A DNA stretch of 64,000 nucleotides from a candidate division WWE3 bacterium (GTDB taxonomy: Bacteria > Patescibacteriota > WWE3 > UBA101185 > UBA10185). The notes below the pieces were generated by a model. It ran no database searches. It was not told the origin of the DNA and saw nothing but the letters and a program-made list of their open reading frames with translations. The DNA is taken from contig JBPOHV010000001.1 of assembly GCA_052035175.1 (NCBI GenBank), positions 703,771 through 767,770 of the forward strand. Reading direction: 5' to 3'. The first letter of the stretch is position 1; every line of letters begins with the position of its first letter. This document shows positions 21,175 through 49,900 of the stretch, piece by piece. The translations under genes and the position numbers were made by a program.

Positions 21175-21384
21175 GGGTCAGTCCCACCCAAGGACTGACC
21201 TTTATAGCATCTGTGCCAAAATGAAAGTTGTAAAACCAAGATAAAATAGACATTCTAATCGATTTTACAAAGATCGCATACTAAATTTTATAGAAATAAC
21301 GTGTAAAGTTACAGTAAATGTTGTTAGTATAGGTAATTGTAAGTACAGATGTTAGATAGGTACAGTACTTTTGAAGGACAGATC
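21175..21384. repeat. Composite repeat unit: REP-like hairpin (GGGTCAGTCC-n6-GGACTGACC, 21175-21201) plus the AAGTACAGTACTT-TGAAGGACAGATC motif (21359-21384)
   Basis: A homologous unit of about 210 bp lies at 23514-23729 in the same orientation. Confidence 0.6.
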
Positions 21385-23513: not shown

Positions 23514-23729
23514 AGGGTCAGTCCCCTTCGGGGACAGACCCTACCCAGATGTGTACCAAAACAAACCTTATAAATACAACCAAAAATGACTAGAAGGTGC
23601 ATATCCACCAAAGATCGCACCGCAAATCCGGAAAACTTTTCAACATAAAACAACGCATATCCGTATAGCTATAATAAAGCCACGGTACAGGAGTTAACCA
23701 AGTACAGTACTTCTGAAGGACAGATCCTC
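23514..23729. repeat. Second copy of the composite repeat unit: hairpin AGGGTCAGTCCCC-ttc-GGGGACAGACCCT (23514-23542) plus the AAGTACAGTACTTCTGAAGGACAGATCCTC motif (23700-23729)
   Basis: Direct-repeat partner of 21175-21384. Confidence 0.6.
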
Positions 23730-23781
23730 ACTTAGTCCCGTACCTACAACTTAGAATGGCGGTCGCGTATGTATAAAACTA

Positions 23782-23810
23782 TTGACAAAACCTATGATAC
23801 CTGATATATT
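23782..23810 (+). promoter_or_regulatory. Sigma70-like promoter (TTGACA, 17-nt spacer, TATATT)
   Basis: Read directly from the sequence; it lies upstream of the lipoprotein gene. Confidence 0.5.
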
Positions 23811-23893
23811 ATCTATCGTTAATACCCAAACATCGGCATATCTCCCATACCGGGAAAAACAAAAATATGCCTAACAATTCAAGGAGAAATCTC

Positions 23894-24280
23894 ATGTTCA
23901 AAAAAATTGCCCCCTACCTCGCCTTACTGTTACTGGTCCTCGCAAGCCTGGCTTGCGGACTGGGCAACCCCCAAAAGATTGGGGGGACGACCGACGGACT
24001 TTCGGGGCAATCCCCCACGGCGGAAGCCGTAGAGGCACCAACTGAAAGCCAGACGGGCACTATGCCCGCGATGGTCATCGGTACTCAACCAAAAACCTTG
24101 GCTGAATTCCGAAGCTGCAACAAAACACTTGTCGATTGGCAAGCCCTCAAAAACACCTCAACCCTAACCGACATGGCTACCCCATGCCGAGTTGCCGCCT
24201 GGCAGGGCATTGAGGTTGATGGGGTCGTCTACGATCCCACCACTGAAGAGGGCTTTAATGCCCTCTCGGCGATGCCCTAA
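23894..24280 (+). CDS. Small secreted protein or lipoprotein, GC-rich and codon-atypical
   Basis: AAGGAG RBS, signal peptide MFKKIAPYLALLLLVLASLAC. High GC3 (CTG, GGC, CCC and ACG codons). Confidence 0.5.
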   Translation: MFKKIAPYLALLLLVLASLACGLGNPQKIGGTTDGLSGQSPTAEAVEAPTESQTGTMPAMVIGTQPKTLAEFRSCNKTLVDWQALKNTSTLTDMATPCRVAAWQGIEVDGVVYDPTTEEGFNALSAMP

Positions 24281-24397
24281 GGGCATCACAAAGCCGCCAT
24301 CTGGCGAAAAGGAAAAGTCTATCGAGCTTCGGCTTGATAATCAACTTTATCTTTTCCCACTGGCGGCTTTTGTCGTTCTATAGGTAGTTTCTAGTAA

Positions 24398-26242
24398 CTA
24401 ATACCCCTGTTTCTCAAACCACAAGTCCATCAACTTCCTCGCTATTGGAGCAGCGTCGTCAGCTCCTCCACCACCACCTTCTATAAAAACAGTCAAAACT
24501 ATTGGTTTAACATTGTCTTTTACTTCTAAAGGACCAAAAACAGTAAATAACGCGTGTGTACCGTATTCGCCATTTGGCTTGTAATACTCAGATGTACCAG
24601 TTTTCCCAGCTATCTCTAAACCTTTATGCTTATCAGCAAAATCAAAAAAAGGATACCCTGTACCTCCGGGGCTGACAGCTAGCTTTAAACCATCCCTTAC
24701 AATAGCAAGCGTCTGATCATCGACAAAGCCTTGCGACTGAATTTGTGAAGTATGCTCAGGCTCGCCTTCAATTTCATTTACGACTCGAGGTACAAAAATC
24801 TTACCTTGAGATGCAAAAAGGCTTGTAGCCTGGTTTACCTGCAAAATAGTGCCCAAGACGTCACCTTGCCCTATCGAAGTAATATAAGTATCTCCCAAAT
24901 ACCAAGCTCGTGATTTACCATCAGGAAAATAGCCTGCAACCTCACCATTGAGGTCTATCCCAGTTTTTTGACCAAAGCCAAACAATGTTGCCCATTTGTT
25001 TATTTTATTTATTCCTAAGCCACCAACACCGTTGTATCCCCCACCCATTGTATAAAAATAAGTATCATTGCTTACTTGCAAGGCTTTGAATAAATCTACA
25101 TCGCCATGACCATCTAATTTCCAATTTTTAAAAGTCGACCCACCTATACTTATAAAACCTGGATCAAATATTTGATATTTTTCTGAAACTAATTTTTCCA
25201 TCAAAATTGCACTTGCCATAACCATTTTAAAAGTTGAACCAGGTGGATACACAGCAGCTATTACACGATTAAAAAATGGAAATCGTTCATCAGTATTTAA
25301 CTTTGATAACTCTTCTGGAGAAATATTGTTAGACATTTTGGTTGGGTCGAATGAAGGATAGCTAACCATAGCCAAAACACCGCCAGTTGTCGGATCTTGC
25401 GCAATAATCGCACCTCCTGTTGATTTTGCTTCTGGGTCGTCTAATTTGGTTTTTAATAAATCGTACGCTAAAACTTGAAGATCTTTGTCTAAATAAGTTT
25501 TGAGATTGCGACCAGCAAATGCATCGCGCTTGTCTATTTGCTTAAAGTGACCACCCAAAGAATCTGATTCGACAATTTGCGAACCTGGAATACCAGATAA
25601 ATACTTATTATAAAATTGTTCTACTCCAGTTTTACCTACAATTACAGGAGATAAACTGTCAGACAAGCCCACATACCCTAATACGTGCGCAAAAGCTTCA
25701 CCATAAGGGTATTCGCGAACTGGAAAAGAGCTTATAGAAATACTAGAAAACTTATCGATATTTGAATCGATAGGCAAGATTTGCTCTTTTGACAAACCAG
25801 AGAGTATCAAAATATTTGTGTTATTTTTGTTTATTTCTTCTATTATTTTTGTATCGTCAAAAGGAATTAGTTTTTTTAATGTCTCTACTTCAACAAAACA
25901 TTTATCAAATTTTCCAGCAGCATCGACGCATAATCTTGTATTCATTTGTATACTAAAGGCTGGCTTGTTTCTGGCCAAAATCTCGCCATTTCTATCAAAA
26001 ATAGCACCGCGTTCTGCAGGAATAACAAATTCTAGAAATCTATTGTCATCAGACAAATTCTTGTATTTATAATAATCTACAACTTGCAACTGGACACTTC
26101 TAAAAATAAAAAGACAAATGAAAGCAACAACAGATACCGATAAAAACACCAAGAGTCGTTTTTTAGATATTTCATCTACACTAAACTTTTTGTCTTTGGG
26201 AGTATAAAAAGGTACAAAGTCAAAAACCTGATCCTCATTCAT
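24398..26242 (-). CDS. mrdA: Penicillin-binding protein 2 (peptidoglycan D,D-transpeptidase)
   Basis: GSTFKMV (SxxK), SNDTYF (SxN) and GKTGTSE (KTG), plus an N-terminal TM helix. Confidence 0.85.
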   Translation of the reverse strand: MNEDQVFDFVPFYTPKDKKFSVDEISKKRLLVFLSVSVVAFICLFIFRSVQLQVVDYYKYKNLSDDNRFLEFVIPAERGAIFDRNGEILARNKPAFSIQMNTRLCVDAAGKFDKCFVEVETLKKLIPFDDTKIIEEINKNNTNILILSGLSKEQILPIDSNIDKFSSISISSFPVREYPYGEAFAHVLGYVGLSDSLSPVIVGKTGVEQFYNKYLSGIPGSQIVESDSLGGHFKQIDKRDAFAGRNLKTYLDKDLQVLAYDLLKTKLDDPEAKSTGGAIIAQDPTTGGVLAMVSYPSFDPTKMSNNISPEELSKLNTDERFPFFNRVIAAVYPPGSTFKMVMASAILMEKLVSEKYQIFDPGFISIGGSTFKNWKLDGHGDVDLFKALQVSNDTYFYTMGGGYNGVGGLGINKINKWATLFGFGQKTGIDLNGEVAGYFPDGKSRAWYLGDTYITSIGQGDVLGTILQVNQATSLFASQGKIFVPRVVNEIEGEPEHTSQIQSQGFVDDQTLAIVRDGLKLAVSPGGTGYPFFDFADKHKGLEIAGKTGTSEYYKPNGEYGTHALFTVFGPLEVKDNVKPIVLTVFIEGGGGGADDAAPIARKLMDLWFEKQGY

Positions 26243-27509: not shown

Positions 27510-28547
27510 TCAAATTTTTACTGTATTCAAAAGCTTTTGATCGTCTAGTACTTTGCCACAACCGCGCACTACACAAGTTATCGGATCTTTTGAAATATTG
27601 ACTGGAACACGCAATTCTTCTGATAACAATTTATCAAGGCCGCGCAACAAAGAAGTGCCCCCAGCAAGAACTATGCCATCACGAACTATGTCAGTCATCA
27701 AATCTGCCGGAGTTTCTTCTATTGCATCTTTTATACCATCGATAATTATATTTAAAGGTTGACGTAATGCTGCTCTGATTTCAGCAGATGAAACTTCTAC
27801 TGCACGCGGTAAACCAGACTTCAAATCACGCCCTCTTAAAGTGGCGGTATGCTTATCTTCGTTTGGAAATGGATAAACGTTGCCGATTAAAAATTTTATT
27901 TCTTCCGCAGTACGTTCACCCAATAATAAGTTGTGTTGATTCTTGGCAAAATTAACTATTTCCACATCAAACTCATCCCCTGCTACGCGTATTGATTTAT
28001 TTACTACTAAACCTCCAAGTGAAATAACGGCTATTTCACTTGTACCTCCTCCCATATCTACGATCATGGCTCCATTTGGTTGTGTAACATCGATACCCGA
28101 GCCAATGGCGGCAGCCATTGGCTCGTACAATAGATGCACTTCACGTGCACCTGCATTCTTCGCAGCATCAACAACTGCCTTACGTTCAACCGAAGTAGCC
28201 CCAGAAGGAATACCTATTACAACACGTGGCTTTGGGATACGTGGGAATTTTGTTGGCGTGTCGTGTATTTGCTTTATAAAATAAGAAATCATCTTTTGAG
28301 CCGCATTAAAGTCTGAAATAACTCCATCGCGCAAAGGTCTAATTGCCTCGATGTTCGCAGGAGTTTTACCAAGCATTTTTTTTGCCTCATATCCTACTGC
28401 CAATACCTCACGCGACTTTTTCATCACTGCAACAACGCTAGGTTCACGTATTATTATCCCTTTTCCTTTGACGTACACCAATGTATTGGCTGTACCCAAA
28501 TCTATGCCTATATCATATGAAAAATATTGCAGCAATGAGCTAAACAT
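27510..28547 (-). CDS. mreB: Rod shape-determining protein MreB
   Basis: DIGIDLGTANTLVYVKGKGIIIREPSVVAV actin-fold motifs. Confidence 0.9.
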   Translation of the reverse strand: MFSSLLQYFSYDIGIDLGTANTLVYVKGKGIIIREPSVVAVMKKSREVLAVGYEAKKMLGKTPANIEAIRPLRDGVISDFNAAQKMISYFIKQIHDTPTKFPRIPKPRVVIGIPSGATSVERKAVVDAAKNAGAREVHLLYEPMAAAIGSGIDVTQPNGAMIVDMGGGTSEIAVISLGGLVVNKSIRVAGDEFDVEIVNFAKNQHNLLLGERTAEEIKFLIGNVYPFPNEDKHTATLRGRDLKSGLPRAVEVSSAEIRAALRQPLNIIIDGIKDAIEETPADLMTDIVRDGIVLAGGTSLLRGLDKLLSEELRVPVNISKDPITCVVRGCGKVLDDQKLLNTVKI

Positions 28548-28577: not shown

Positions 28578-28607
28578 AAGATCTGTCCTTCATAAGTACA
28601 GTACTTT
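28578..28607. repeat. REP-like element, reverse orientation (GATCTGTCCTTCATAAGTACAGTACTT)
   Basis: Reverse complement of the 21359 and 23700 motifs; 60 nt upstream of the RAYT gene. Confidence 0.6.
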
Positions 28608-28666: not shown

Positions 28667-29272
28667 GTGCCTGAGAGAAACTCAATCAAACAATACATAT
28701 CAAATGGTACATATCATGTTTATAATCGCGGCAATGATAAACAAACAATATTTAATGATGATGAAGACTATAGATATTTCTTGCACTTACTGGCGGCATA
28801 TTTAACTAAACCAAATCATTTCCAAGAAATCAAAACAAGGTCCTTTTATAAAAAAATAAAACTTCATGCCTACTGCTTAATGCCAAACCATTTTCACTTA
28901 CTGCTAACTCAAAAAAGACGCATGGACATGGCAAAGTTTATAAAGTGTTTATCAACCAGATATACGCTATACGTAAATAAGAAATACAAAAAGACTGGAC
29001 ATCTGTATCAAGGAAGGTATAAAGCGCGCCTAATTACTTCTGATGCGGACTTTATGAACACAAGCAAATATATACATCGCAATCCGACAGATATTCCAGC
29101 AAAACTAGAATCTTATCAATATTCTAGTTTAGGGACATATCTCAGTAAACATCGTACACATAGTTTTCTCTACCACAAAGATATTTACAAGTATTTCAAT
29201 AACAATACACATGAATATAAAGCGTACATATTTCTAGAGGATCAGATCTTGGAAAGGACTGATCTGCTATAA
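28667..29272 (+). CDS. REP-associated tyrosine transposase (RAYT; IS200/IS605-like HUH Y1 transposase)
   Basis: YHVYNRGN, the HUH motif HFHLLL and the catalytic-Tyr motif GHLYQGRYKARLI. GTG start. Confidence 0.7.
   Translation: MPERNSIKQYISNGTYHVYNRGNDKQTIFNDDEDYRYFLHLLAAYLTKPNHFQEIKTRSFYKKIKLHAYCLMPNHFHLLLTQKRRMDMAKFIKCLSTRYTLYVNKKYKKTGHLYQGRYKARLITSDADFMNTSKYIHRNPTDIPAKLESYQYSSLGTYLSKHRTHSFLYHKDIYKYFNNNTHEYKAYIFLEDQILERTDLL
29239..29267. repeat. REP-like element, forward orientation (GAGGATCAGATCTTGGAAAGGACTGATCTG), overlapping the last RAYT codons
   Basis: Core GGACTGATC; inverted relative to the copy at 28578. Confidence 0.5.
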
Positions 29273-31301: not shown

Positions 31302-31376
31302 GCCTGGGTAGTTCAGTGGTAGAACGCTTCCATGGTAAGGAAGAAGTCGCGAGTCCGATTCTCGCCCCAGGCTCCA
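31302..31376 (+). tRNA. tRNA-Thr (anticodon GGT)
   Basis: Acceptor GCCTGGG/CCCAGGC, anticodon stem CTTCC/GGAAG with loop ATGGTAA, T-loop GAGTCCGATTCTCGC and a CCA end. Confidence 0.8.
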
Positions 31377-31623
31377 GTAAAACCATACCATGGGGCTAGG
31401 CCCGGCTTAACCCTTTTTAAAAATATACAGCTTCACCATAAGTTAATTTCACAACTACACAAATAAAGTATTAGGGATTGGTATTAAAGTGATTAAATGC
31501 GTTCGAGTAAAAGAATAGAACGAAGGCTTAGCCCGGCTAGGCCCTTAATAGAACCGCACCGGCGAGGAAGAAAAAGGAAGGCATGGCCTAAGGCCTTTCT
31601 CCCTCACCGGGCACACGGCAACT

Positions 31624-32106
31624 TTAAGGAGTTGCCAGTTTAAAGTAATATATCGGGTATGTTATCTCCCCCCCGGAGACGCCAGTACCTGTTAACGTGA
31701 GGATAGGTACCTCACGATAAATTTTCTCTAATGGCCCGGAGAAAGGGCCATCAGTGTAGTACGGTACTGTAAGGCTTGGAAAATCGTACCAAAGACGACC
31801 TTCCACATTACGCGGGGCATAAGCTGTCAGGACGACCCGATCGTCCAACAAGCCCCGCTTACCACCAGCAGTAACATGGAGACGTAAATTCTCCACGAAA
31901 CCGTTTTCGAATTTTAAGACGAGAGTGAATTCACTCCCATCAAAAAATTCGGCAGTACCATCCTGCTTAAATTCAGCGCTCGTAATAGATATGAGCGCGC
32001 TGTCTTCAGGACCAGTTGGTCCTGAGGGCGTTGGCGAGGAACAACTTACCAACCAACAAAAAACCCCTAATAATAATAGGGGCATCAACCATTTTGCGCG
32101 TTTCAT
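31624..32106 (-). CDS. Lipoprotein, codon-atypical and GC-rich (lipobox LVSC)
   Basis: MKRAKWLMPLLLLGVFCWLVSC|SS signal and lipobox. Arg is encoded by CGC/CGG/CGT, unlike the AGA used in neighbouring genes. Confidence 0.5.
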   Translation of the reverse strand: MKRAKWLMPLLLLGVFCWLVSCSSPTPSGPTGPEDSALISITSAEFKQDGTAEFFDGSEFTLVLKFENGFVENLRLHVTAGGKRGLLDDRVVLTAYAPRNVEGRLWYDFPSLTVPYYTDGPFSGPLEKIYREVPILTLTGTGVSGGEITYPIYYFKLATP

Positions 32107-32276
32107 CGCGACCTCCAATGAAAAAAAGATTCTACTCTATCTCCAGCAGCTTGGTTGATAGAATTAGTATCAGATATACTACCCTATAGTTGTGTTTTTG
32201 GCAAATTAAAACTAGACCTGGTCTGACCAGGTCCTATATGTTAATCCCCCACTTTATGTGTATAATCATGTAGCCT

Positions 32277-32350
32277 AGGGGCGTCGTATAGTGGTAGTAC
32301 AGCGGTCTCCAAAACCGCTTGCGGGGGTTCAATTCCCTCCGCCCCTGCCA
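32277..32350 (+). tRNA. tRNA-Trp (anticodon CCA)
   Basis: Acceptor AGGGGCG/CGCCCCT, anticodon stem GCGGT/ACCGC with loop CTCCAAA, T-loop GGTTCAATTCC and a CCA end. Confidence 0.85.
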
Positions 32351-32356
32351 ATAATA

Positions 32357-32623
32357 TCAATCTACTAGCGTGTCATACGGAGAGCATTGATAAGGCATAC
32401 CATAGCATTTTGCTTGTAATAGTATTTTTTCTTTATACCCTTTACCCATGTCTTCATAGCCTACTAAGGGAGTTCTATATCCCATACACTTACAAATCCT
32501 GCCACTACTACTAAATAACCAACCTCCATCAGGAAATGAAACAACAGATTTCGGATAAAAAAATAAAGTCAAAAGAATAAGTAACACAATGAATACTATC
32601 CAAGTTTGTATTTTATTAAACAT
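32357..32623 (-). CDS. Small membrane-anchored hypothetical protein (88 aa)
   Basis: ORF with an N-terminal TM helix and a Cys-rich tail. Confidence 0.3.
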   Translation of the reverse strand: MFNKIQTWIVFIVLLILLTLFFYPKSVVSFPDGGWLFSSSGRICKCMGYRTPLVGYEDMGKGYKEKILLQAKCYGMPYQCSPYDTLVD

Positions 32624-32886
32624 ACAGATTTATTATAGAAATTTATCATACGATTAGCCAGTACATTCCAATTATAATCACATAATATACACAGCACACT
32701 ATCAAGTAGCTCAGGTGGTCTGCCAGCGCCCGGACAACCGTAGTGCCAGTTATCACTCGGTGGATATAAAAGTGAAGTTGGAAATAAGGCTGTATTTAAA
32801 CTAGTAGAAGATCAGCGCTGTACTAAGCTGAAACGTGCACACATGAATTAAGGGGAATATTGTATAAGATAACAAGTTATTATTAA

Positions 32887-33189
32887 TTATTCAGAGAAAG
32901 AAGGCGTACAATCGGTGCTTAGGCTTTCTATAAGATCCCAAACACTATCTTTGGAAGGTTGCTGGACCATATAAGTTTCTCCAGACTTAGCTCGCAAAAC
33001 TAGCACTTTACTTGTCTCAGAAGAAGTTAATGATTTCACTTTACAAGATAAAATCATGTCTTCTGCGACTGTCCACTCGATATAACTGTGCTTCTTAGAC
33101 TTTTGCAATACAAAATTATATAAAAACAAAGTCAGTACAAAAAGGATGCCTAGCAATATATATGATTTTTTACTTAATGCTAACTTCAT
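32887..33189 (-). CDS. Small membrane-anchored hypothetical protein (100 aa)
   Basis: ORF with an N-terminal TM helix. Confidence 0.3.
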   Translation of the reverse strand: MKLALSKKSYILLGILFVLTLFLYNFVLQKSKKHSYIEWTVAEDMILSCKVKSLTSSETSKVLVLRAKSGETYMVQQPSKDSVWDLIESLSTDCTPSFSE

Positions 33190-33207
33190 TTTATTTCTAG
33201 TAATATT

Positions 33208-35655
33208 CTATGCCAATTGTCTTCTAAAAATCCACTTAGAAATTTCTATCAATATTAATGTTAACACCGATGCACCAAAAATATATATCCAATATACACT
33301 TGGCCAAACTATTTGGAAAAACTGCCTAGTTTCTACAAACAAAAATGGAAACACTTGTAATATTAAACCCGCAAGAACAGCGATTTGCAAATATTTATTG
33401 TCAAAAAGACGTTTACCTATAATAGAATTCTTGAGATGCCTTATAGAATAAACATATAACAATGAATTAACACCCATTGTGGCAAATGCAACTGATCTTG
33501 CAAGTATGAGATTGCCGGTATCATTATAAACGATCGCAAACAGTATGAATGCAAAAAAACCTGAGGCCAAAGAAACTATACCCATCAAGTATTTCATCCA
33601 AGGGGCTATCAACTGTGACGAAGTATCGCGCGGCGGGTCTTGCATTATATCTTTTGACTTTGTATCTATTGTTAGAGCAAGGCTAGGAAACCCATCGGAA
33701 ACTAAATTGATCCACAGTAATTGCGACGCAGTTGCCGGCGAAGGGAAACCAGTTATCAAAGCCAATAATATAGTACTTATTTCTTGAAAAGCGCCACTCA
33801 TTAAATAAAGAATAACTTTACGTATATTTTCGAATATACCCCTACCCTCTTCAACAGCATCAACAACCGTTGTAAAGCTAGAATTCAATAAGATTAAGTC
33901 TGCAGTTTCTTTTGCTACATCAGTAGCCTCATTTACAACGACACCAATATCAGATCTGGCTAATGCAGGTGCATCATTTACACCATCACCCAACATTGCT
34001 ACTACCTCGCCGTTTGCCTTTAGTGCATTAATTATTTGTAATTTTTGCGCAGGAGAAGTACGAGCAAATAATTTAACATCTGTTGTTGACTTCAAAAGCT
34101 TTTCTAAATGCTTTTGCGTCATATTGGTCAAATCAGTTCCCAAATATATCTGAGAAACATTTATATCTAGTTGTGCCAAAACCGCTTTGGCGGTATCAGC
34201 ATAGTCCCCAGTTATAATGACAAGTTTTATACCAGCTAACATTGCACGCTTTAAAGATTGTGAAACATCTGGCCTCACAGGGTCTGAAAATGCCAAGAAA
34301 CCTACCCATGTGTAATCTACACCCAAGTTATCTGCATCAATAGATGTAATAGCTTTATTCACTGGCTTTTGGATATAACCTATCAACCGCATTCCTTTTT
34401 GAGATAACTCTTTTATTTGTAATCGGATTTTGGACTTTTCAGAAGAAGAAAGGGCCGTCATTTCTAAAACTACTTCTGGCGCGCCGTTTATAAATAAAAT
34501 ATTGTTGTGTGTATGCTTTGCAAGCACAGCAAAATACTTGGTCTCAGATGAAAATGGAATACTATCGAGACGGGCATATTTTGCAAAAAGCTCTTTACCA
34601 TCCAAGACCAAGGTCTTCGACCAATTACTTGCTGCAATCTCTAACGGATCTGCCATATCGTTTGCTATGGTTACTTGGAAGGCTAACTTATCTATATCGC
34701 CTTGAGTTTCTTGTACAGCCATTTTTCCATATGTAAGTGTTCCAGTTTTATCAGTACAAATCGTAGTAACGCCACCCAAAGTTTCTGCCGATGCCAAATT
34801 GCGCACCAAACCTTGCTTTAACAAAATCCTTTGCATACCCAAAGCTAAAACCGCAGTAAACGATACTAGCAAGCCTTCTGGTATAGCTGATACTGCCAAA
34901 GCTACAGATGTAATAAAAATTTCAACAGGATTATTTCCCAACAAAAGGCCAATAAAAAAAACTAGAACTGTAAGAACCAAAATAAAAACTGAAAGCTTTC
35001 TACTAAATAAATTGAGCTGTTTCGCAAGTGGAGTTGGCTCTTTACTTTCTTGTATAGAACTTGCAATCTTACCAATTTCGGTATTGCTACCAGTATGTTC
35101 GACCTGTAGCAGCCCTTGACCAGATATAATTACTGTTCCCATAAATACCTTATCAGACCGTATTCTCGACACAGCGTCTGATTCACCTGTTATAGCCGCT
35201 TCTGAAACAAATAACCGGTTTGCTTCCAACATGACACCATCAGCTGGTATTTTGTCTCCGGCGTTTAAAATCACTAAATCGCCAGGAACTAAGTGAGATG
35301 TATGTATTTTTTGTTCGCGCGCATCTCTTATCACAAGTGCGTAAGTTTGAACTAGTGACTTGAGTGCCGTAAGAGAATCATTTGCTTTCTTTTCTTGGAT
35401 AAAGCCCAAAATTGTATTTATGAATACTGAAAGTAATATGATCAGCGTGTCTGACCAATGGTTTAGAAACATAGTAATTATGGCGGCAAAAAGCAACACA
35501 TATACCAATGGATTTTTTAATTGTGAAATAAATAACAATAAGCTCGAAACTTGAGGCTTTTCAGGCAAAACATTTTTACCATGTTTCTTTAGCAAATCGT
35601 TGCTTTGAATTGTCGTCAAACCTGGGTACTGAATAATATAAAAAGACATATACAA
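33208..35655 (-). CDS. P2-type cation-transporting ATPase (Ca2+/Mg2+-type)
   Basis: DKTGTLT phosphorylation motif, TGDYADTA, GDGVNDAPAL, and 10 TM helices. Confidence 0.85.
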   Translation of the reverse strand: MYMSFYIIQYPGLTTIQSNDLLKKHGKNVLPEKPQVSSLLLFISQLKNPLVYVLLFAAIITMFLNHWSDTLIILLSVFINTILGFIQEKKANDSLTALKSLVQTYALVIRDAREQKIHTSHLVPGDLVILNAGDKIPADGVMLEANRLFVSEAAITGESDAVSRIRSDKVFMGTVIISGQGLLQVEHTGSNTEIGKIASSIQESKEPTPLAKQLNLFSRKLSVFILVLTVLVFFIGLLLGNNPVEIFITSVALAVSAIPEGLLVSFTAVLALGMQRILLKQGLVRNLASAETLGGVTTICTDKTGTLTYGKMAVQETQGDIDKLAFQVTIANDMADPLEIAASNWSKTLVLDGKELFAKYARLDSIPFSSETKYFAVLAKHTHNNILFINGAPEVVLEMTALSSSEKSKIRLQIKELSQKGMRLIGYIQKPVNKAITSIDADNLGVDYTWVGFLAFSDPVRPDVSQSLKRAMLAGIKLVIITGDYADTAKAVLAQLDINVSQIYLGTDLTNMTQKHLEKLLKSTTDVKLFARTSPAQKLQIINALKANGEVVAMLGDGVNDAPALARSDIGVVVNEATDVAKETADLILLNSSFTTVVDAVEEGRGIFENIRKVILYLMSGAFQEISTILLALITGFPSPATASQLLWINLVSDGFPSLALTIDTKSKDIMQDPPRDTSSQLIAPWMKYLMGIVSLASGFFAFILFAIVYNDTGNLILARSVAFATMGVNSLLYVYSIRHLKNSIIGKRLFDNKYLQIAVLAGLILQVFPFLFVETRQFFQIVWPSVYWIYIFGASVLTLILIEISKWIFRRQLA

Positions 35656-35681
35656 AAAGTATATCAGTAACTAGTTGTGCT

Positions 35682-35733
35682 TGGTGCACCGGATTGAAAG
35701 TGTGCCTCATGGCAAGTTATCAACCCAGTGCAC
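35682..35733. repeat. 52-nt GC-rich hairpin element, copy 1 (GGTGCACCGG...CCAGTGCACC)
   Basis: Near-identical to 36076-36127; an imperfect hairpin of about 22 bp. Confidence 0.6.
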
Positions 35734-35739
35734 CTGTGG

Positions 35740-35949
35740 TCATTTACGAGTTACTAATCTGTAAATGACCACTACTATAAGAAAAATGAACAGCAGCCCC
35801 GGGATGGGGCTTTCGGCGGCTTCAGCAGCCGCCATTTGCTCTGCGGATACCGAAGTACCCTGCAGAGCTGATTGATAGCATATCGGCCCTAAAAGGAGCG
35901 ATATGAGTAGAAGAAAAACAATTACCTGACTTTTAAATGTCCTAAGCAT
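35740..35949 (-). CDS. Small two-TM membrane protein (69 aa: MLRTFKSQVIV...IYRLVTRK), codon-atypical
   Basis: AAGGAGTG RBS before the ATG at 35949; TTGCAA-15-TATAAT promoter at 36023-36049. The longer ORF-track start at 36126 covers the hairpin and the promoter. Confidence 0.5.
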   Translation of the reverse strand: MLRTFKSQVIVFLLLISLLLGPICYQSALQGTSVSAEQMAAAEAAESPIPGLLFIFLIVVVIYRLVTRK

Positions 35950-36075
35950 AGGACACTCCTTTCCAAGATTCCAATCTATGATAGGAAATAGAACCTTGGG
36001 TAGTTTGTATGGATAAGTAGAAATTATACCTAAATAGACGTCTTTGCAAATTTTAAAATTGTATTTTTTGAGTGT

Positions 36076-36127
36076 ATTACCCGATGGTGCACCGGATTGA
36101 AAGTGTGCCTCACGGCAAGTTATCAAC
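36076..36127. repeat. 52-nt GC-rich hairpin element, copy 2
   Basis: Lies 15 nt after the stop of the 36142-36525 gene. Confidence 0.6.
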
Positions 36128-36141
36128 CCGGTGCACCGTAT

Positions 36142-36525
36142 TCATGGCTTGTAACGCCAAACCATGAATGCGAACACAAATATCGCCAGAGCCGTCATTA
36201 CGGCGATGGCCACGATGGTTTGGCCAGTGGTACCAGGGGTACCAGTGGTAATCTCAGCAGCGGTGAGTTCTGGACGCTGTTGAGCGGCCCCCCCACCCCC
36301 ACTAACCAGAGGCAAGAAAACTGCTTCTGCAGCACCAGCTGCAGAGGTTGCTTCTTGCTGAGGTGTTTGGCCTGAGAAGTAGCCAAACACCGTTGTGTGG
36401 CTCGGGCCTAACCAAAAAATGGCAGCCCCTACCACCGCGATAAGAAGCACTGCGGCGCCAATAAGTAGTTTGGTGACATCATACTTTGCTATGACGCCGT
36501 CGGCGCTAAGTTTCGTTTTCATCAT
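36142..36525 (-). CDS. Small two-TM membrane protein (127 aa) with an Ala/Gly/Thr/Pro-rich linker, GC-rich and codon-atypical
   Basis: AAAGGAGTGA RBS; N- and C-terminal TM helices; basic tail RYKP. Confidence 0.5.
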   Translation of the reverse strand: MMKTKLSADGVIAKYDVTKLLIGAAVLLIAVVGAAIFWLGPSHTTVFGYFSGQTPQQEATSAAGAAEAVFLPLVSGGGGAAQQRPELTAAEITTGTPGTTGQTIVAIAVMTALAIFVFAFMVWRYKP

Positions 36526-36682
36526 TCACTCCTTTTCCAATTCCAAAGTTACAACCACACGGCTGAATAACTTTGGAACATTAGTAAGATAGAAAATATA
36601 CCTAAATAAGATTTTTTGCAAACCTATAGTTGCTAGAAGTTCTCCTGGTGACTCATAAAGTCTCCTTGATATAATTCCACAC

Positions 36683-37387
36683 ATGAACAAAAGCTTAATT
36701 TACAAAACCACACTGGTAACTTTTATCACCATCGCATTAGTTGTTTTTTCATTAGTAATGAGAAACGACACTACAATAATAGAACACCGCATTACAAGAT
36801 CATTTGCAGACACAAGTTTTACTTTGCTATGTATAACATTAGCAATCGGACCACTTTCAAAATTACGCACATACTTCACAAAATTTATCCAGTTCCGCAG
36901 GCAATTTGGGATATCTACATTTGTAACAGCAGCATTTCATGGAATATCAGCGTCATATTTATTTGCAAACTTTAATTTATTGACAATGCTTGGCGTAGAA
37001 TATTCATCCCAGGCAAATACATTTATAAGAATCATGCCAAGTGGTTTTGGAATCGCAAATCTTATGGCTATAGTTGCATTTATAGTATTACTTGTACTCT
37101 GTCTAACATCCACCGACTTTGCAATTAATAAATTAGGTAGTGCAAGTTGGAAATGGTTGCACAGAATGGTATATGTGGCCTTCTATTTGACCTTCTTACA
37201 CGCTTTTTACTACATTTTTATGCATTACATGCCGTCAAGTGTTAAACAGGCTCAAGCAGATATAGAAGCTAACTGGTTTGGCACACTATTTTTGATATCA
37301 GGATTTGGAGTAATCTTGCTACAAATATTTGCGTTTATTAAAACTGTAAAGCTCATGCAAATGAATAAACCCACAATTAATCAATAG
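36683..37387 (+). CDS. Ferric-reductase-like transmembrane protein (MsrQ/YedZ-like heme-binding subunit)
   Basis: Six TM helices with conserved His positions. WKWLHRMVYVAF and FRRQFGISTFVTAAFHG resemble MsrQ WQTLHRLVY and RRLLGLWCFAWATLH. Confidence 0.45.
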   Translation: MNKSLIYKTTLVTFITIALVVFSLVMRNDTTIIEHRITRSFADTSFTLLCITLAIGPLSKLRTYFTKFIQFRRQFGISTFVTAAFHGISASYLFANFNLLTMLGVEYSSQANTFIRIMPSGFGIANLMAIVAFIVLLVLCLTSTDFAINKLGSASWKWLHRMVYVAFYLTFLHAFYYIFMHYMPSSVKQAQADIEANWFGTLFLISGFGVILLQIFAFIKTVKLMQMNKPTINQ

Positions 37388-37946
37388 CTGGTTTTTTGCA
37401 CAAAACCACATGAAATGTACCATTATCATCGGTGTAGTGTGACTTTTCTGGTATTACGACAGCTGTGTCTTCTAACACAATGTTAAACCCAGAATTTATT
37501 AAATATTCATGAGTATGTTCAGCTGTATGTACAGCAATATCGGTGCTTGTCGGAAAATAATTATCGCATAAAAATAAAATACCCCCAGGTCTAAGCTTAT
37601 TAAAAATTTGGCTAAGAATTGCTGCTCGCGACTCTTCATTACTAGCGAAAATATATGTATTTGCAAACCATACAGCATCTAACGAGTTGGCAGAAATTGG
37701 TAAAGATAGCATATCAGCAGCAATTTTATCTGCTGGATTTGATATAGACCTCTTCAATGTAGGTATTTTTATGTCTGCACTAATAACTTTATGCTTATGG
37801 TCATGAAAATACGCAGAATCGGCACCACTATTGGCTCCCAAATCAAGAATAAGTGAGTTTCTAGGCACCAATGATAAGAATTTATCACGATATTTTGACC
37901 AGCTAACTTCATTTTTTGGAGTTTCAAGTGGTATGACTTCTAACAT
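37377..37946 (-). CDS. Class I SAM-dependent methyltransferase
   Basis: Motif I LDLGANSGADS. Confidence 0.6.
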   Translation of the reverse strand: MLEVIPLETPKNEVSWSKYRDKFLSLVPRNSLILDLGANSGADSAYFHDHKHKVISADIKIPTLKRSISNPADKIAADMLSLPISANSLDAVWFANTYIFASNEESRAAILSQIFNKLRPGGILFLCDNYFPTSTDIAVHTAEHTHEYLINSGFNIVLEDTAVVIPEKSHYTDDNGTFHVVLCKKPAID

Positions 37947-38031
37947 GCGATTAATATATCAAATATAAATTTGCATTCCTACACAATGAGGGCCGCGACC
38001 TAATGACTGAGTCTACCCTTCCTCGCTAGCT

Positions 38032-38064
38032 CAAAATAAAAAAACCCCTCGTTTTCACTCGAGG
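38032..38064 (-). terminator. Rho-independent terminator (CCCCTCG-ttttcact-CGAGGGG), with a T7 run on the minus strand
   Basis: Perfect 7-bp GC stem flanked by A7 and TTTA, so it is bidirectional-capable. Confidence 0.7.
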
Positions 38065-38402
38065 GGTTTATGCGCCATAAATCATATATATATAATTACG
38101 CCCCGCGCTAGCGGGACAAAGCTACACAATCATGCTAAAAAATGATTGCAGTCCCAATGTGTCGAGCCGCTGAACCCAGTCCTCCCTAGGCAAGGTGGGC
38201 ATAATCTGTTAACCATCTCCTCAGAGACAGCTTTCAAATGCCCGGCATAGGAATAAATGCAGAGCGACTTTTGTCAACTTAAACGAACACACCAGGAAAA
38301 GAAACCTAACTCTAAAAACTTAATATAAAATTAAATTTCTTTCTATATTTAGGATAACAAATGTAATACACGAGTCAACGTAATATAAAAGATATCAGAT
38401 TG

Positions 38403-39014
38403 CTAGAAACCTAGCAGTGAAAGGGAAAATTGGATAGCTGGATTTAGTATATGACCTGTTGTGCCCGTCAGTACAAGAACTAAAAGAATCACAATTCCAT
38501 ACTTTTCTACTTCAAGCCACTGATAATACAAATCGCCTTTTAGAAAAGCAAAAACAACTTTATACCCATCTAGTGGGTGTATAGGAATAAGATTAAAAAA
38601 AGCTAAAACCAGGTTGTAATAGATTGTTACGTATAAAAAAGTACCTATACTCAAAGGTAAAATCGGGCCAAAGACACGAAAAATTATTGCAAGTACAATC
38701 GCCAATAAAATATTTGATAAAGGCCCAGCAAACGCTATAAGGGCTGTATCACGCTTGGGATCTTTCAAATAACTCGGATCAAATGAAACAGGCTTACCCC
38801 AACCAAATCCAGCAAATATTAACAAAAGCATACCCATAGGATCTATGTGAGCCACAGGATTTATTGTCAACCTACCTAAAAACCTGGGTGTAGGGTCACC
38901 TAATTTATCTGCAACAAATGCATGTGCAAACTCATGAACAGACAAACAAATAATTAATGACAAAGTAACCAACACAAAAAGTACAGGGTCTTTGTATAAA
39001 AGCTCAAAAAGCAT
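38403..39014 (-). CDS. Site-2 protease family (M50) membrane metalloprotease
   Basis: HEFAHAF HExxH motif and NLIPIHPLDG. Confidence 0.7.
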   Translation of the reverse strand: MLFELLYKDPVLFVLVTLSLIICLSVHEFAHAFVADKLGDPTPRFLGRLTINPVAHIDPMGMLLLIFAGFGWGKPVSFDPSYLKDPKRDTALIAFAGPLSNILLAIVLAIIFRVFGPILPLSIGTFLYVTIYYNLVLAFFNLIPIHPLDGYKVVFAFLKGDLYYQWLEVEKYGIVILLVLVLTGTTGHILNPAIQFSLSLLGF

Positions 39015-39057
39015 GAAAACATTTTAACACTGCTAGATAGTGTGGTAAAATCTCCAC

Positions 39058-39246
39058 GTGAAATCAGCCTGGAATTTCTTTAGAGAATCAATAGACGAAT
39101 TTAAGAAAGTGCAGTGGCCAACGAAAAAAGAAGCATTTAAGTTAACTATGGTCGTGGTCGCTACAAGTTTATTGTCTGGAGTTTTTATTGAATCTTTAGA
39201 CTTCATATTTAGAGAAGCCCTTGCCAAATTCATATCTTTAAGCTAA
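39058..39246 (+). CDS. secE: Preprotein translocase subunit SecE
   Basis: KKVQWPTKKEA followed by a single TM helix. Confidence 0.8.
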   Translation: MKSAWNFFRESIDEFKKVQWPTKKEAFKLTMVVVATSLLSGVFIESLDFIFREALAKFISLS

Positions 39247-39267
39247 AAAAGATAGGTTAGTAAATAT

Positions 39268-39834
39268 ATGGAAAACGACGGAATAATAACAATTAATAAT
39301 AATGTAGCCGAAAACGCCAAATGGTATGTTGTACATACTTATTCTGGGCACGAAAATAAGGTCGCTATAACACTTAAACAACGCGCCGAAGTTGCCGGAT
39401 TCACTGATAGAATTTTCAAAATCTTTATACCTCACAAACAAACAATAAAGGTCGATGGTGGCAAAAAACGATCTGTAGACGAAAGATTATTCCCTGGATA
39501 CGTTATAGTAATGATGATTATGGACGACGACGCATGGCATATAGTAAGATCTACTCCTGGGGTTACTGGTTTTGTAGGAATGGGTTCTACACCTACTCCA
39601 GTTTCTGATACAGAAGTAAAGAATCTTATCAGAACAGCAAATATAGAAGCACCTAAATTTGAAGCCAAGTTTTCGATCGGAGACAGCATAAAAATCGGTG
39701 AAGGTCCTTTTAAAGACTTCATGGGACAAGTAAGCGATGTAAATACCGATCAAGGTAAAGTCAAAGTACTAGTTTCTGTATTTGGTAGAGAAACTCCTGT
39801 AGAGTTGGACTTTGCACAAGTAAAAAGGTTATAA
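39268..39834 (+). CDS. nusG: Transcription termination/antitermination factor NusG
   Basis: NGN domain (WYVVHTYSGHENKV) and KOW domain (GDSIKIGEGPFKDFMGQV). Confidence 0.9.
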   Translation: MENDGIITINNNVAENAKWYVVHTYSGHENKVAITLKQRAEVAGFTDRIFKIFIPHKQTIKVDGGKKRSVDERLFPGYVIVMMIMDDDAWHIVRSTPGVTGFVGMGSTPTPVSDTEVKNLIRTANIEAPKFEAKFSIGDSIKIGEGPFKDFMGQVSDVNTDQGKVKVLVSVFGRETPVELDFAQVKRL

Positions 39835-46929: not shown

Positions 46930-46980
46930 AAATTAAACTTTACTAAATGTTGTTATTACAATATTTAACAAGGATTAAAA

Positions 46981-49900
46981 ATGCCTATATCTGCCCAAGA
47001 TAAAACATCGAAATACGATTTCACAAATTCATTACATTTAACTGTTTCAGAGGCAGCGAGTTTATTAAAAGTATCCCCTACTACACTGAGAAGATTTGAG
47101 AACGAACACAAAATTTCTTCGACAAGGTTACCAAATGGCTATAGAGTTTTTGACATTAAAGATATAAACAATCTTAAGAATTCTTTGGAAACTCAAAAGT
47201 TAAGTAAAGAAAAAAATAAAGGAAAAAAAGTATTAAAAACTATAAACAGAAACATTGATGCATTAAATAAATACACTGTACAAACACAAACTCAAAAAAA
47301 ACCAATCAATAAGTCTATAAGAAATAAATATCTTTTATCCAACGCAATAGTTTTGGTGATGGGTGTTTATGCAATTTTAACTTTCAGCATTAATAAAAAT
47401 ATACCAACAACTGGATTGACATCCCTCGTTATATCTACAAGCAATAAAGCTTTAAGTACAACAAATGACAACCTTATAACAAACAAAATAACAGATACAC
47501 AAGTAAGTAATGTATTAGCTTTGGGAGACCAAAGACCTGACTATTCTTTTAATACTAGCGTAAATGCCAATTTTGAAAAGCTACTCAATGTTACCGGCAT
47601 ATCCAATTTGAATGGTGGAATAACAACACCGACAATTACTTTTACAGAAACAGGCACAATTAATCAATTGGATGCTATTGATGATACAACTGAGACCACT
47701 TTAGAAAATGCATTAGATATAAATGGTGATGTTGTAGGAACTGGATTAAATAATACACAAATAGCAGACAGTGTCATAGAAGGAACAAATCTTGTAGAAG
47801 ACTTTGAGTATACTGGTAATTTCAATTTTGCAGGTACATGGTTGATCGATGGTAGTGAAGTTACCGCAACAGCTGAGCAAATTAATTTGTTTGCAGATAT
47901 CAGTGCAACATCTGACGAAATTAATTATCTGTCTGGCGCAACTGTTGATAATGGCGGTTTAGTATTTGGTAACGGCTCAAGCTTTGCACAAGATCCGATA
48001 AATCTGTTCTGGGATGATACAAATAACAGACTTGGAATAGGAAATACTACTCCGGCTTATACATTGGATGTTACAGGTGATATTCGTGTAAGTTCAGCGT
48101 CTGACATATATGTAGGTGCAAAAGGTCTGAACGATACTGGTGCTACTGCTGCAGATTCTGGAGCTACATTAGTAGGTGTATTTGATGAATTTAACAATTC
48201 TAACAGTACTACAGTTCAAGCAGTACTAAATGACCTGGATGCTGCAGTTAGTGCTGGTGGATCTGAATGGACGCAAGACACCGGTTTCATTTACCTGACA
48301 AACACTTCTGACGAAGTAGTAATAGGAGGAAATGCATCGCTTTCGAGTAAATTTGCGATAAACGGTGATGCTGATGAAACACAACTCTTAGTACAAGGTC
48401 ATTCTACACAAACAAACAATTTGGCAGTATTTGAAAATTCATTAGGTACTGATGTCTTTACAATAAATAATAGCGGAAATGTAACTTTGTCAGGAACATT
48501 AACTTTAAATAGCGAAACAATATCAGATTTTACAGGTGATGGTTTGTCACTATCTGGCGGTGCTTTGACTATAGATTTAACATCTCCAACCGATGCATTG
48601 TCTTCCACTACATCCAGCGGATCTGGGTTGGAGGTTATCACAACTGGACTTACGCTATTACAAGGGTGCAACAATGGCGAAATATTAAAGTGGAACGAAA
48701 CTAACGATTCTTGGGAATGCGGAACTGATACAGGAGCTTCATTTGCAATTGTAGATGTTCAAAACAATGATGTATCAGTTGGATCAAATGTAGATACAAT
48801 TGATTTTTCTACTGATTTTAGTGTAACCGCATCCCCTTCTAATGAAGCAAACGTTGCAATAGCAGATGATGTTTTGAACTTCACAGAGATTGCAGACGCA
48901 CTTTCACTTGACGCTGCAACAACTATCACAAACGCACTAGCTGGAAACTTAACAATAGATCTAACTTCTACTGGTGATTTTGTAATAGCTGATGGAGGGT
49001 CTGCTGTTTATACATTTACTGATGCAGGCGGTCTTACACAAGCAGGTACAGGACAAAACACGTTTACTGGTAACATCGACGCCACATTAGGAATAGATGT
49101 GACAAATGCCAATCTCACTGTCGGTGGATCAAACTTCAGTGTAGATTTTTCAAACGGAAATACAACAACTGCTGGCACCTTAGCAGTGAATGGTGATTCC
49201 ATTACATCTGATGGAACAACCTTAGCTATTAATGCAGCCGGAAATGTAGACATACAAGATATTTTAAATGTAGATTCTTTGACTACAGATACTGGTGGTA
49301 TCACAATTACTAGCGGACAAGATCTAACTATCGGGGCAATAGGATTGAATGATTTGGGTACAAATAATGCTACATCTGGAGCATCCCTAGTTGGAACATA
49401 CGATGAATTCAATAATTCAAATAGCACTACTGTACAAGATGTTTTGGATGATTTAGACGCAGCAATTGGTGCAGGAGCTTCTAAGTGGACACAAGACACT
49501 GGATTTGCATATTTAACAAATACTACAGACTCTATCACAATTGGTGGAAATACTGAGCTTGGTAAGTTAGCTGTCGACGGTAATGCTGATGAAGTTCAAT
49601 TGCTAATCCAAGGTAATGGCACACAAACAAACAATTTGGCAGTATTTGAGAACTCTGCTGGTGTTGATCAGTTTACTGTAACAAACACAGGAGACTTAAC
49701 TATTGCAGGTGACCTTGCTATATCTGGAGGAAATATAACCACAGCAGTAACGTTTGACTCTACAGCAACATCGACAGGTACTTTAACAGCAAATGGTACG
49801 TTTGATGCGAATGGTGTTGTAACTCTAGGAGACGGAAGCGACAATATAGCAATCGATGGCAATATATGGGACATAACATCAGCAGGTGTAGGAACAGGCT

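Follow-up and report, generated by a model that had tools for sequence, protein, structure and literature searches.

Phage 'morons', in the concept of Hendrix and Juhala, are autonomous transcription units of deviant GC content that lie between conserved genes. Palindromic or GC-rich selfish elements are another familiar component of AT-rich genomes, with examples in the Rickettsia palindromic elements, the GC clusters of yeast mitochondria, and the repetitive extragenic palindromes (REP) or bacterial interspersed mosaic elements (BIME) with their REP-associated tyrosine transposases (RAYT). The lpp gene of Escherichia coli illustrates a further arrangement, in which an abundant envelope lipoprotein is made from a hairpin-rich, stable mRNA. 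Here, we analyze three short GC-rich islets in a 64,000-nt stretch of DNA from a candidate division WWE3 bacterium (contig JBPOHV010000001.1 of assembly GCA_052035175.1, positions 703,771 to 767,770 of the forward strand; hereafter the window). The islets share features with each of these systems and carry four small genes, I1 in islet 1, I2 in islet 2, and I3a and I3b in islet 3, whose coding regions are tiled with hairpins.

Like morons, the islet units each comprise one small gene that carries a promoter and a terminator of its own; they have conserved neighbors, a deviant composition and, as is often the case for morons, a lipoprotein or small membrane protein as the product. Unlike morons, they lie in no recognizable prophage and have no phage family match, and hairpin tiling has not been described for morons. 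Like the selfish palindromic elements, the islets present GC-richer palindromes in an AT-rich genome, partly inside open reading frames (ORFs), with a Y1/RAYT-like gene and REP-like repeats nearby (REP elements are surveyed in PMC12306157). Unlike those repeat families, nearly every islet hairpin is unique, and only one 52-nt element, present in two copies, repeats.

The closest described parallel that we found is the coding palindromes of hairworm (Nematomorpha) mitochondria, which are perfect, reach 284 bp and lie in conserved respiratory genes (Mikhailov et al. 2019, PMC6649704). As in the hairworms, the islet hairpins are accommodated in translated sequence through codon degeneracy and follow the same pairing-phase trend (PMC6649704), and in both systems the hairpins may be maintained by template switching or arm conversion. 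The islet stems, unlike the hairworm palindromes, are short (5-12 bp), many and unrelated to one another, and they reside, together with a GC enrichment, in lineage-specific bacterial genes without known homologs (ORFans).

Composition and hairpin tiling of the islet genes

The original prediction, made from the nucleotide sequence alone, had singled out three regions of raised GC with atypical codons and had read them as candidate horizontal acquisitions. Its compositional part was confirmed. In 300-nt windows, GC peaks at 0.57 (23900-24199), 0.51 (31550-31849) and 0.56 (36200-36499), compared with a window mean of 37.1% (0.371). GC content at third codon positions (GC3; Table 1) was compared with an expectation obtained by fixing the protein sequence and drawing codons from the window's own usage. 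This expectation is 0.26-0.29, and the excess amounts to z = 9.0 for I1, 4.6 for I2, 6.2 for I3a and 3.0 for I3b; GC3 of the other window ORFs is 0.15-0.33, and the four islet genes are the strongest compositional outliers within the window. Because GC3 exceeds the amino-acid-based expectation to this degree, demand for Ala, Gly and Pro codons, the ordinary explanation named in advance, fails to account for the GC enrichment. The codon table likewise agrees with the predicted shifts: CTG and CTC together make up 0.40 of Leu codons in the islets vs 0.10 in native genes, CCC 0.29 vs 0.09 and GCC 0.33 vs 0.15, and AGA drops to 0.07 vs 0.41.

The excess has a structural counterpart. Islet 1 folds far better than its dinucleotide shuffles (z = -8.7 and -7.4 for the two strands), and all four coding regions fold strongly on both strands (Table 1); seven control gene segments gave values from +1.1 to -2.7. 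Pairing in the islets is local, with a median span of ~20 nt, and consists of consecutive short stems, often perfect and unrelated in sequence, such as TCAGGACCA.AC.TGGTCCTGA or CGTGAGG.TACCTAT.CCTCACG; I2 is the densest in hairpins. Untranslated regions (UTRs) and coding regions of the islets are paired to an equal degree. Perfect hairpins, defined as a stem of at least 7 bp with a loop of 3-10 nt, occur over the whole window at the chance rate (54 observed vs 48 expected), and significant clustering is confined to the three islets, where 400 nt contain 3-4 of these hairpins vs ~0.2 expected. No such clusters were found in the corresponding loci of relatives. In a scan across the window, all windows below z = -5 fell in the islets or in one segment of mreB.

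Two possible sources of the folding signal were rejected. Patchy GC was tested by shuffling within blocks of 8 or 16 nt, which keeps local GC, and z remained between -4.2 and -9.4. The amino-acid sequence was dismissed as the cause by synonymous permutation, in which the protein and the codon set are both kept: the islet genes gave z = -3.0, -8.0, -7.7 and -5.6, and native genes +0.1, +0.6 and -1.6. Third positions that are paired are G or C more often than unpaired ones in every islet gene (0.74/0.46, 0.49/0.35, 0.61/0.33 and 0.56/0.16). The excess of GC and GC3 in the islets thus goes into stems, and the stem-loops depend on the arrangement of synonymous codons. The GC3 anomaly is tied to islet-specific hairpin density, which a simple import of high-GC DNA does not explain. 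Inverted repeats in translated sequence, more frequent than expected by chance and dependent on codon choice, are the hallmark of coding palindromes, and the islet coding regions contain them.

An lpp-like arrangement was considered as well. Islet genes and lpp share small lipoprotein products, a structured transcript and a strong terminal hairpin; however, in the same tests lpp is far weaker (coding sequence z = -1.9, mRNA z = -4.2, synonymous permutation z = -1.1), compared with -4 to -8.5 in shuffles and -3 to -8 in synonymous permutation for the islets, and the likeness is qualitative only.

Coding status of the islet genes

The islet genes look coding. Their ORFs are longer than those in composition-matched shuffles (p = 0.016 for I1, 0.0015 for I2, 0.0045 for I3a and 0.003 for I3b), and all four products begin with a hydrophobic signal or transmembrane (TM) segment. 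On reading the sequences, the signal peptides of I1 and I2 were found to end in a lipobox with Cys (LASLAC/G and LVSC/S, respectively), followed by a linker rich in Pro, Thr, Gly and Ser, and both products are accordingly predicted to be lipidated lipoproteins. The expectation that the islets encode a lipoprotein or a small two-TM protein, each behind a strong ribosome-binding site of its own, held for the two lipobox proteins and the two two-TM proteins of islet 3, and AAGGAG or GGAGG precedes each of the four ATG codons.

All four proteins are orphans in family collections: Pfam, PHROGs and NCBIfam returned sub-threshold noise only. An exhaustive HMMER scan with I1 against 1.84 billion representatives detected no credible homolog. 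A 638-aa tandem-repeat protein (P0006) that came up as a candidate I1 homolog was rejected, its score being the sum of eight low-complexity matches of ~30% identity. Single-sequence AlphaFold models had a predicted local distance difference test (pLDDT) score of 43 for I2, which is unusable, and a moderate 64 for I1, with an alpha/beta C-terminal domain at 72-87; the I1 model matched no fold in the PDB.

Initiation of translation differs between the islet genes and the native genes. A strong Shine-Dalgarno (SD) sequence was present in 4/4 islet genes vs 3/40 native ones with alternative starts allowed (Fisher p = 2.6e-4). Sixteen of the 40 native genes have a TATAAT-like box that ends 5-12 nt before the start codon, vs a background of 5.8%, and this position of the -10 box suggests that native mRNAs are largely leaderless and that leaderless initiation is the norm in the genome.

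Architecture of the cassettes

Every islet cassette consists of a predicted promoter, a predicted leader of 60-77 nt, a strong SD, the ORF and a long 3' hairpin (Table 1).

In islet 1, codons of the lipobox region form the hairpin GCAAGCC.T.GGCTTGC, and the stop codon lies in the loop of GATGCCC.TAA.GGGCATC. The 3' UTR forms a long hairpin, probably a terminator, which faces PBP2, the convergent gene.

The I2 gene lies on the strand opposite to that of the tRNA genes that border the islet. Two internal hairpins of the islet genes resemble terminators: one with a U-tract in the signal-peptide codons of I2 (32063-32083, minus strand; GCCCCTA..TAGGGGT TTTTTTG), and one with a U-tract in the 5' coding part of I3a (36418-36436, minus strand). 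These could attenuate transcription when it is uncoupled from translation. Just upstream of tRNA-Trp, at 32240-32276 (plus strand), there is a TATAAT box; islet 2 cuts this tRNA gene off from its operon, and the box suggests that tRNA-Trp is now transcribed separately.

For islet 3 the original prediction of a small two-TM protein was correct as to the type of product, whereas the count was not, since two genes are present. The lower gene was assigned to the start at 35949 (69 aa), and a 128-aa ORF starting with TTG was discarded. The two cassettes share a promoter (82% identity over 33 nt), a leader ending with the SD (TTGGAAT..GGAAAGGAGTG) and the 52-nt 3' hairpin (96% identity); the I3a and I3b proteins have no detectable sequence similarity and cannot be aligned. 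The coding parts have therefore diverged or been replaced with the control elements conserved, which argues against a very recent acquisition. In I3b, a perfect hairpin encloses both the SD and the AUG (pairing probability 0.76).

On the sense strand, the two copies of the 52-nt element have the same fold (z = -7.0 and -6.4). Two substitutions distinguish the copies, and one of them is compatible with G.U pairing on the sense strand only, as a result of which the antisense fold falls to z = -2.9. This behavior hints at an RNA-level role. The element had no match among viral contigs.

Table 1. Positions of the islet elements and of related features in the window. z values in the sixth column refer to dinucleotide shuffles of the coding region (sense/antisense).
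Feature	Position	Strand	Length (aa)	GC3	z	Description
I1 promoter-like site	23782-23810	+				TTGACA-17-TATATT, TG upstream, 11/12 match
I1 gene	23894-24280	+	128	0.62	-4.1/-5.3	ORFan, lipoprotein-like; signal MFKKIAPYLALLLLVLASLAC/G; AAGGAG 7 nt upstream; hairpin-tiled
I1 3' UTR	24281-24378	+				Long extended hairpin with UUCG tip, then U-tract; z -6.5
tRNA-Thr(GGU)	31302-31376	+				Left boundary of islet 2 insertion
Islet 2 insertion	31377-32276					900 nt between tRNA-Thr(GGU) and tRNA-Trp
I2 3' extended hairpin	31556-31612	-				~19 bp, z -4.4
I2 gene	31624-32106	-	160	0.43	-8.2/-8.5	ORFan, lipoprotein-like; signal MKRAKWLMPLLLLGVFCWLVSC/S; GGAGG upstream
I2 promoter-like site	32176-32204	-				TTGCCA-17-TAGTAT, directly after the insulator hairpin (element span 32176-32234)
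I2 insulator hairpin	32214-32234	-				GGACCTGGT.CAG.ACCAGGTC and T-rich tail; terminator-like
tRNA-Trp(CCA)	32277-32350	+				Right boundary of islet 2 insertion
I3a promoter-like site	36595-36622	-				TTTGCA-16-TATATT
I3a gene	36142-36525	-	127	0.50	-8.2/-4.1	ORFan; N-terminal TM and C-terminal TM with basic tail; AAGGAG upstream
52-nt hairpin closing cassette 3a	36086-36137	-				15+4 bp, -36 kcal/mol
I3b promoter-like site	36023-36050	-				TTTGCA-16-TATAAT
I3b gene	35740-35949	-	69	0.41	-6.2/-5.1	N-terminal TM, Ala-Glu-rich part, C-terminal TM with basic tail; layout as I3a
52-nt hairpin, second copy, closing cassette 3b	35683-35734	-				C-to-U difference; pairing is retained, as G.U, in the sense orientation only
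mreB perfect palindromes	28016-28042 (11 bp), 28098-28125 (12 bp); span 28016-28125	-				Strong structure outside the islets is limited to this spot
REP-like repeat copies	21358-21384 (+), 23700-23726 (+), 28580-28606 (-)					Two flank topA, one is beside the Y1 transposase gene
Examples for the scarcity of SDs and the TATAAT-like boxes among native genes	29280 (def), 28547 (mreB), 36683, 11117, 46828					

Genomic context and relatives

Gene content and nearest relatives assign the window to the candidate phyla radiation (CPR)/Patescibacteria, with WWE3/Katanobacteria-type metagenome-assembled genomes as the closest matches. Identity to the closest relatives is ~49% for PBP2 and ~72% for MreB, and PBP2 scans of genomes and metagenomes found no relative above 50% identity. 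The window is collinear with two relative loci (L002 and L004) in the order tRNA-Thr(UGU)-Tyr-Thr(GGU)-Trp, L28, fmt, def, mreBCD, PBP2, dprA, topA and rpsB. None of the eight relative loci compared encodes a protein like I1, I2, I3a or I3b. Since the relatives are distant, their lack of the inserts speaks for lineage specificity and not for recency.

The comparison of synteny that had been proposed as a check shows islets 1 and 2 to be absent from the corresponding junctions of the relatives. In the slot between PBP2 and topA (23654-24397), five relatives carry dprA/smf and one (L007) a GGDEF-type gene; the window has I1 there, on the opposite strand. dprA is missing from this slot, and no remnant of it was found anywhere in the window. 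Judged from these loci, the PBP2-topA junction varies across the lineage. Islet 3 lies in a region without conserved synteny relative to the relatives.

The spacer between tRNA-Thr(GGU) and tRNA-Trp measures 900 nt in the window; in L004 and L002 it is only 6 and 71 nt, respectively. The location of islet 2 between these two tRNA genes was correctly predicted; the mechanism attached to it, a classic integration hotspot, is without evidence, as there is no integrase, duplicated tRNA end or direct repeat. Adjoining tRNA genes and absent from relatives, islet 2 is similar to the tRNA-associated genomic islands that are formed with an integrase at a tRNA 3' end. It differs from them in measuring only 0.9 kb and in standing between two tRNAs of one operon.

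A short REP-like repeat occurs near islet 1. Its core is AAGTACAGTACTTNTGAAGGACAGATC with a small palindrome, AAGTAC.A.GTACTT; the 27-nt element has three copies in the window, one of them ~55 nt upstream of the I1 promoter. The 52-nt hairpin has two copies, and the islet hairpins themselves are not a repeat family. Between def and mreB there is a gene for a Y1 (IS200-like/RAYT-type) HUH transposase (28667-29272, plus strand) that is not there in relatives; its product has a Y1_Tnp domain (8e-12), and its best NCBIfam match, the REP-associated tyrosine transposase model (REP_Tyr_transpos), scores 52.8, below the cutoff of 80. This was the sole mobility-type gene found, and it lies outside the islets.

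Origin of the islets

We hypothesize that the three islets are lineage-specific, self-contained expression cassettes that occupy gene junctions which are otherwise conserved, in the AT-rich genome of a CPR bacterium. In each, a sigma-70-type promoter would drive a leader with a strong SD, the gene of a small ORFan envelope protein and, at the end, a long 3' hairpin. The cassettes may come from an unsampled, SD-using gene pool, be it phage, mobile element or another bacterium, and those of islet 3 may be old tandem duplicates. Hairpin tiling together with the terminal hairpin would make the transcripts unusually structured and probably long-lived, with I3b gated at initiation, and such transcripts could supply variable surface or envelope proteins. 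The hairpins themselves may have one of three sources: RNA-level selection, inheritance from the gene pool of origin, or accretion in place by template switching. As a whole, including the origin, the duplication and the roles of the transcripts, this explanation is tentative, and we put its chances a little short of even.

A number of observations weigh against it. The evidence concerns four genes of one genome, and with relatives this distant the timing and direction of the change (gain here vs loss elsewhere) are not strictly shown. Codon usage of the islets is intermediate, with TTA at 0.21, CTT at 0.21, ACT at 0.33 and GCT at 0.31, and is therefore unlike that of a truly high-GC gene. The dinucleotide signature of the islets, islet 3 especially, is within the host range: the relative-abundance distance delta* is 0.144, 0.143 and 0.072, and host segments average 0.106 with 0.170 as their 95th percentile, a comparison of low power at ~500 nt. 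The islet promoters look native. No flanking direct repeats of at least 9 nt were found at the islets, no tRNA 10-mers in the islet 2 insertion, and neither an integrase nor a duplicated tRNA end. Word-indexed searches of I1, I2 and I3a against 5.8 billion protein clusters returned self-matches only. With regard to a role of the RNA, both strands of the islet coding regions fold about equally well, and the use of G.U pairs tracks base composition. Pairing of first with third codon positions is favored and that of third with third disfavored; the pair-phase counts (152, 125 and 84) lean as coding constraint predicts and are not significant per helix. An RNA role tuned to translation is not apparent: open initiation regions were not found, and pairing probabilities there (0.28, 0.55, 0.57 and 0.76 for the four genes) are not consistently low.

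An alternative is a DNA-level origin of the hairpins in situ, in which template switching or arm conversion perfects quasi-palindromes and the ORFan coding sequences were largely shaped, or even born, in this way; hairpins would accumulate where protein constraint is weak and GC stabilizes them. Perfecting of quasi-palindromes by template switching is documented (PMC5941160, PMC8604942), and precedents exist in Nematomorpha mitochondrial DNA and in proteobacterial inverted repeats (PMC6649704, PMC5941160, PMC8604942). The mreB gene of the window offers a case outside the islets: the motif GTSEIAVISLGG is encoded by an 11-bp perfect palindrome and EPMAAAIGSG by a 12-bp one. TSEIAVISL and EPMAAAIGS are conserved in MreB, and in relatives the identical first motif is encoded with 3-5 bp of pairing and the near-identical EPMAAAIGAG with 9, 9 and 4 bp. 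Further support comes from the three stems of at least 11 bp in coding regions vs ~0.25 by chance in our own estimate, from stems that are mostly perfect Watson-Crick, from the equal folding of the two strands and the spread of hairpins over UTRs and coding regions alike, and from the complete divergence of I3a and I3b between flanks that are 82-96% identical. On the other hand, with perfect hairpins at the chance rate window-wide there is no excess outside the islets, and two other small ORFs without family matches (32357-32623 and 32887-33189) are not hairpin-rich. Template switching also leaves the GC enrichment and the SD-led architecture unexplained, and the well-formed signal peptides and lipoboxes favor evolved proteins. 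We consider an origin of this kind unlikely.

Recent acquisition from a high-GC donor, perhaps the host of an epibiont, was the original prediction; the composition would then be that of donor codons, and the tRNA genes would mark a hotspot. It would agree with a GC and GC3 excess beyond amino-acid content, with islets that are inserted relative to relatives, with SD-led initiation foreign to the genome and with ORFan products. However, no homolog exists in any lineage searched, those of high GC included, and the protein search for donor lineages that had been suggested found none, with only self-matches for the three proteins queried. GC3 is just 0.41-0.62, AT-ending codons are still common, and the dinucleotide signature was not distinguished, at the low power noted above, from that of the host; neither an integrase nor an att repeat nor a tRNA duplication was found. 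Donor codons would not yield a hairpin tiling that synonymous permutation destroys, and islet 3 was duplicated in place, with coding regions diverged past recognition, hence not recent. Horizontal acquisition in the general sense retains the lineage-specific, GC3-deviant, SD-led insertions in its favor and lacks a donor, a mobility signature and a foreign dinucleotide signature; the high-GC host as a donor was not upheld, given the missing homologs, the intermediate codon usage and the host-like dinucleotides. Horizontal gene transfer from a high-GC host is thus only partly supported: neither a donor nor an integrase was detected, nor an att repeat or a dinucleotide signature of foreign type, and the recent-import version of it seems distinctly unlikely to us.

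Islet 3 could also be viewed as a pair of type I toxin-antitoxin-like loci, which combine small hydrophobic proteins with stable structured mRNAs and a sequestered ribosome-binding site. The small two-TM products, the highly structured mRNA, the sequestered SD and AUG of I3b and the tandem duplication with conserved UTR elements all fit. Yet proteins of 69 and 127 aa exceed typical type I toxins, and neither an antisense RNA gene nor a convincing antisense promoter or terminator was identified at islet 3. The same hairpin-dense layout, moreover, is seen in both lipoprotein cassettes; these are not toxin-like and do not fit such a system. This reading is highly improbable.

Genes for structured non-coding RNAs are typically GC-rich in AT-rich genomes, and the islet ORFs might then be chance products of stop-poor sequence. 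The very strongly negative folding z-scores would be expected of such genes; several frames are open within the islets, and the ORF-length p-value of I1 is only 0.016. Against this, Rfam 15 gave no credible family for any of the three islets even at E <= 1 (the best sub-threshold hits, at E >= 0.11, were to implausible families), and tRNAs were the only matches at gathering thresholds. The islets form a chain of unrelated local hairpins with no organized multi-helix architecture, and their two strands fold equally well. All four ORFs combine an SD at the correct spacing with ATG and an N-terminal signal or TM segment, and two have canonical lipoboxes and linker-like sequence, which leaves the non-coding reading barely credible.

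An assembly artefact, with foreign reads stitched in, would explain the abrupt switch of composition within a few hundred bases, and its probability is negligible: the islets pass into native DNA on either flank, promoters and terminators delimit the cassettes precisely, and the islet proteins are on record both from the 925,229-bp NCBI contig and from Logan assemblies. I3a and MreB are listed from both sources, and an independent Logan contig (run SRR34217543) carries an identical I2 with matching neighbor genes, so that the sequence is not an artefact of one assembler.

Other features of the window

In many bacteria tRNA-Trp is followed by secE-nusG. In the window, nusG (39268-39834) lies 6.9 kb downstream of tRNA-Trp, and the interval 32351-39267, which may be a larger variable region, contains islet 3 and the two small ORFs that match no family, along with genes for a P-type ATPase, a ferric-reductase-like membrane protein, a methyltransferase and an M50 peptidase.

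Between the methyltransferase and M50 peptidase genes, a 456-nt gap without ORFs contains a GC-richer structured stretch (~38040-38300, minus strand) that ends in a strong intrinsic terminator, AAACCCCTCG..CGAGGGGTTTTTTT. Its only match was a weak, sub-threshold one to 6S RNA (16 bits, E = 0.48), and we regard it as a candidate small RNA gene.

At 46969-64000 (plus strand), a single stop-free frame extends over at least 5,677 codons and continues past the end of the window; it constitutes a giant, internally repetitive gene. ORF tools omit this frame, which is why the region resembles fragmented antisense ORFs.

Implications

Compositional islets are routinely read as horizontal gene transfer. 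In the window, hairpin stems explain the atypical GC3 to a large extent, and deviant codon usage can therefore report nucleic-acid structure instead of transfer. The islets might represent an undescribed gene class, in which orphan surface proteins are encoded by small, insulated cassettes that are SD-led and have a GC-rich hairpin chain as their whole transcript, coding part included; we consider this unlikely. If the class is real, it could reflect a functional design, for example extreme mRNA stability or structure-gated translation in an otherwise leaderless, AU-rich transcriptome, or else the footprint of hairpin-based gene generation or mobilization, such as template-switching accretion or a mobilization dependent on single-stranded DNA hairpins. 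Under either option, the structure of nucleic acids would be linked to the way in which envelope proteins arise or are rapidly replaced. Should the tiling be functional, it would be an extreme bacterial case of mRNA structure overriding codon preference and would provide a handle on the expression of special CPR surface proteins that could mediate host contact. Should it be mutational, the islets would be a bacterial counterpart to the hairworm coding palindromes and might show one way in which fast-evolving or de novo envelope genes come about.

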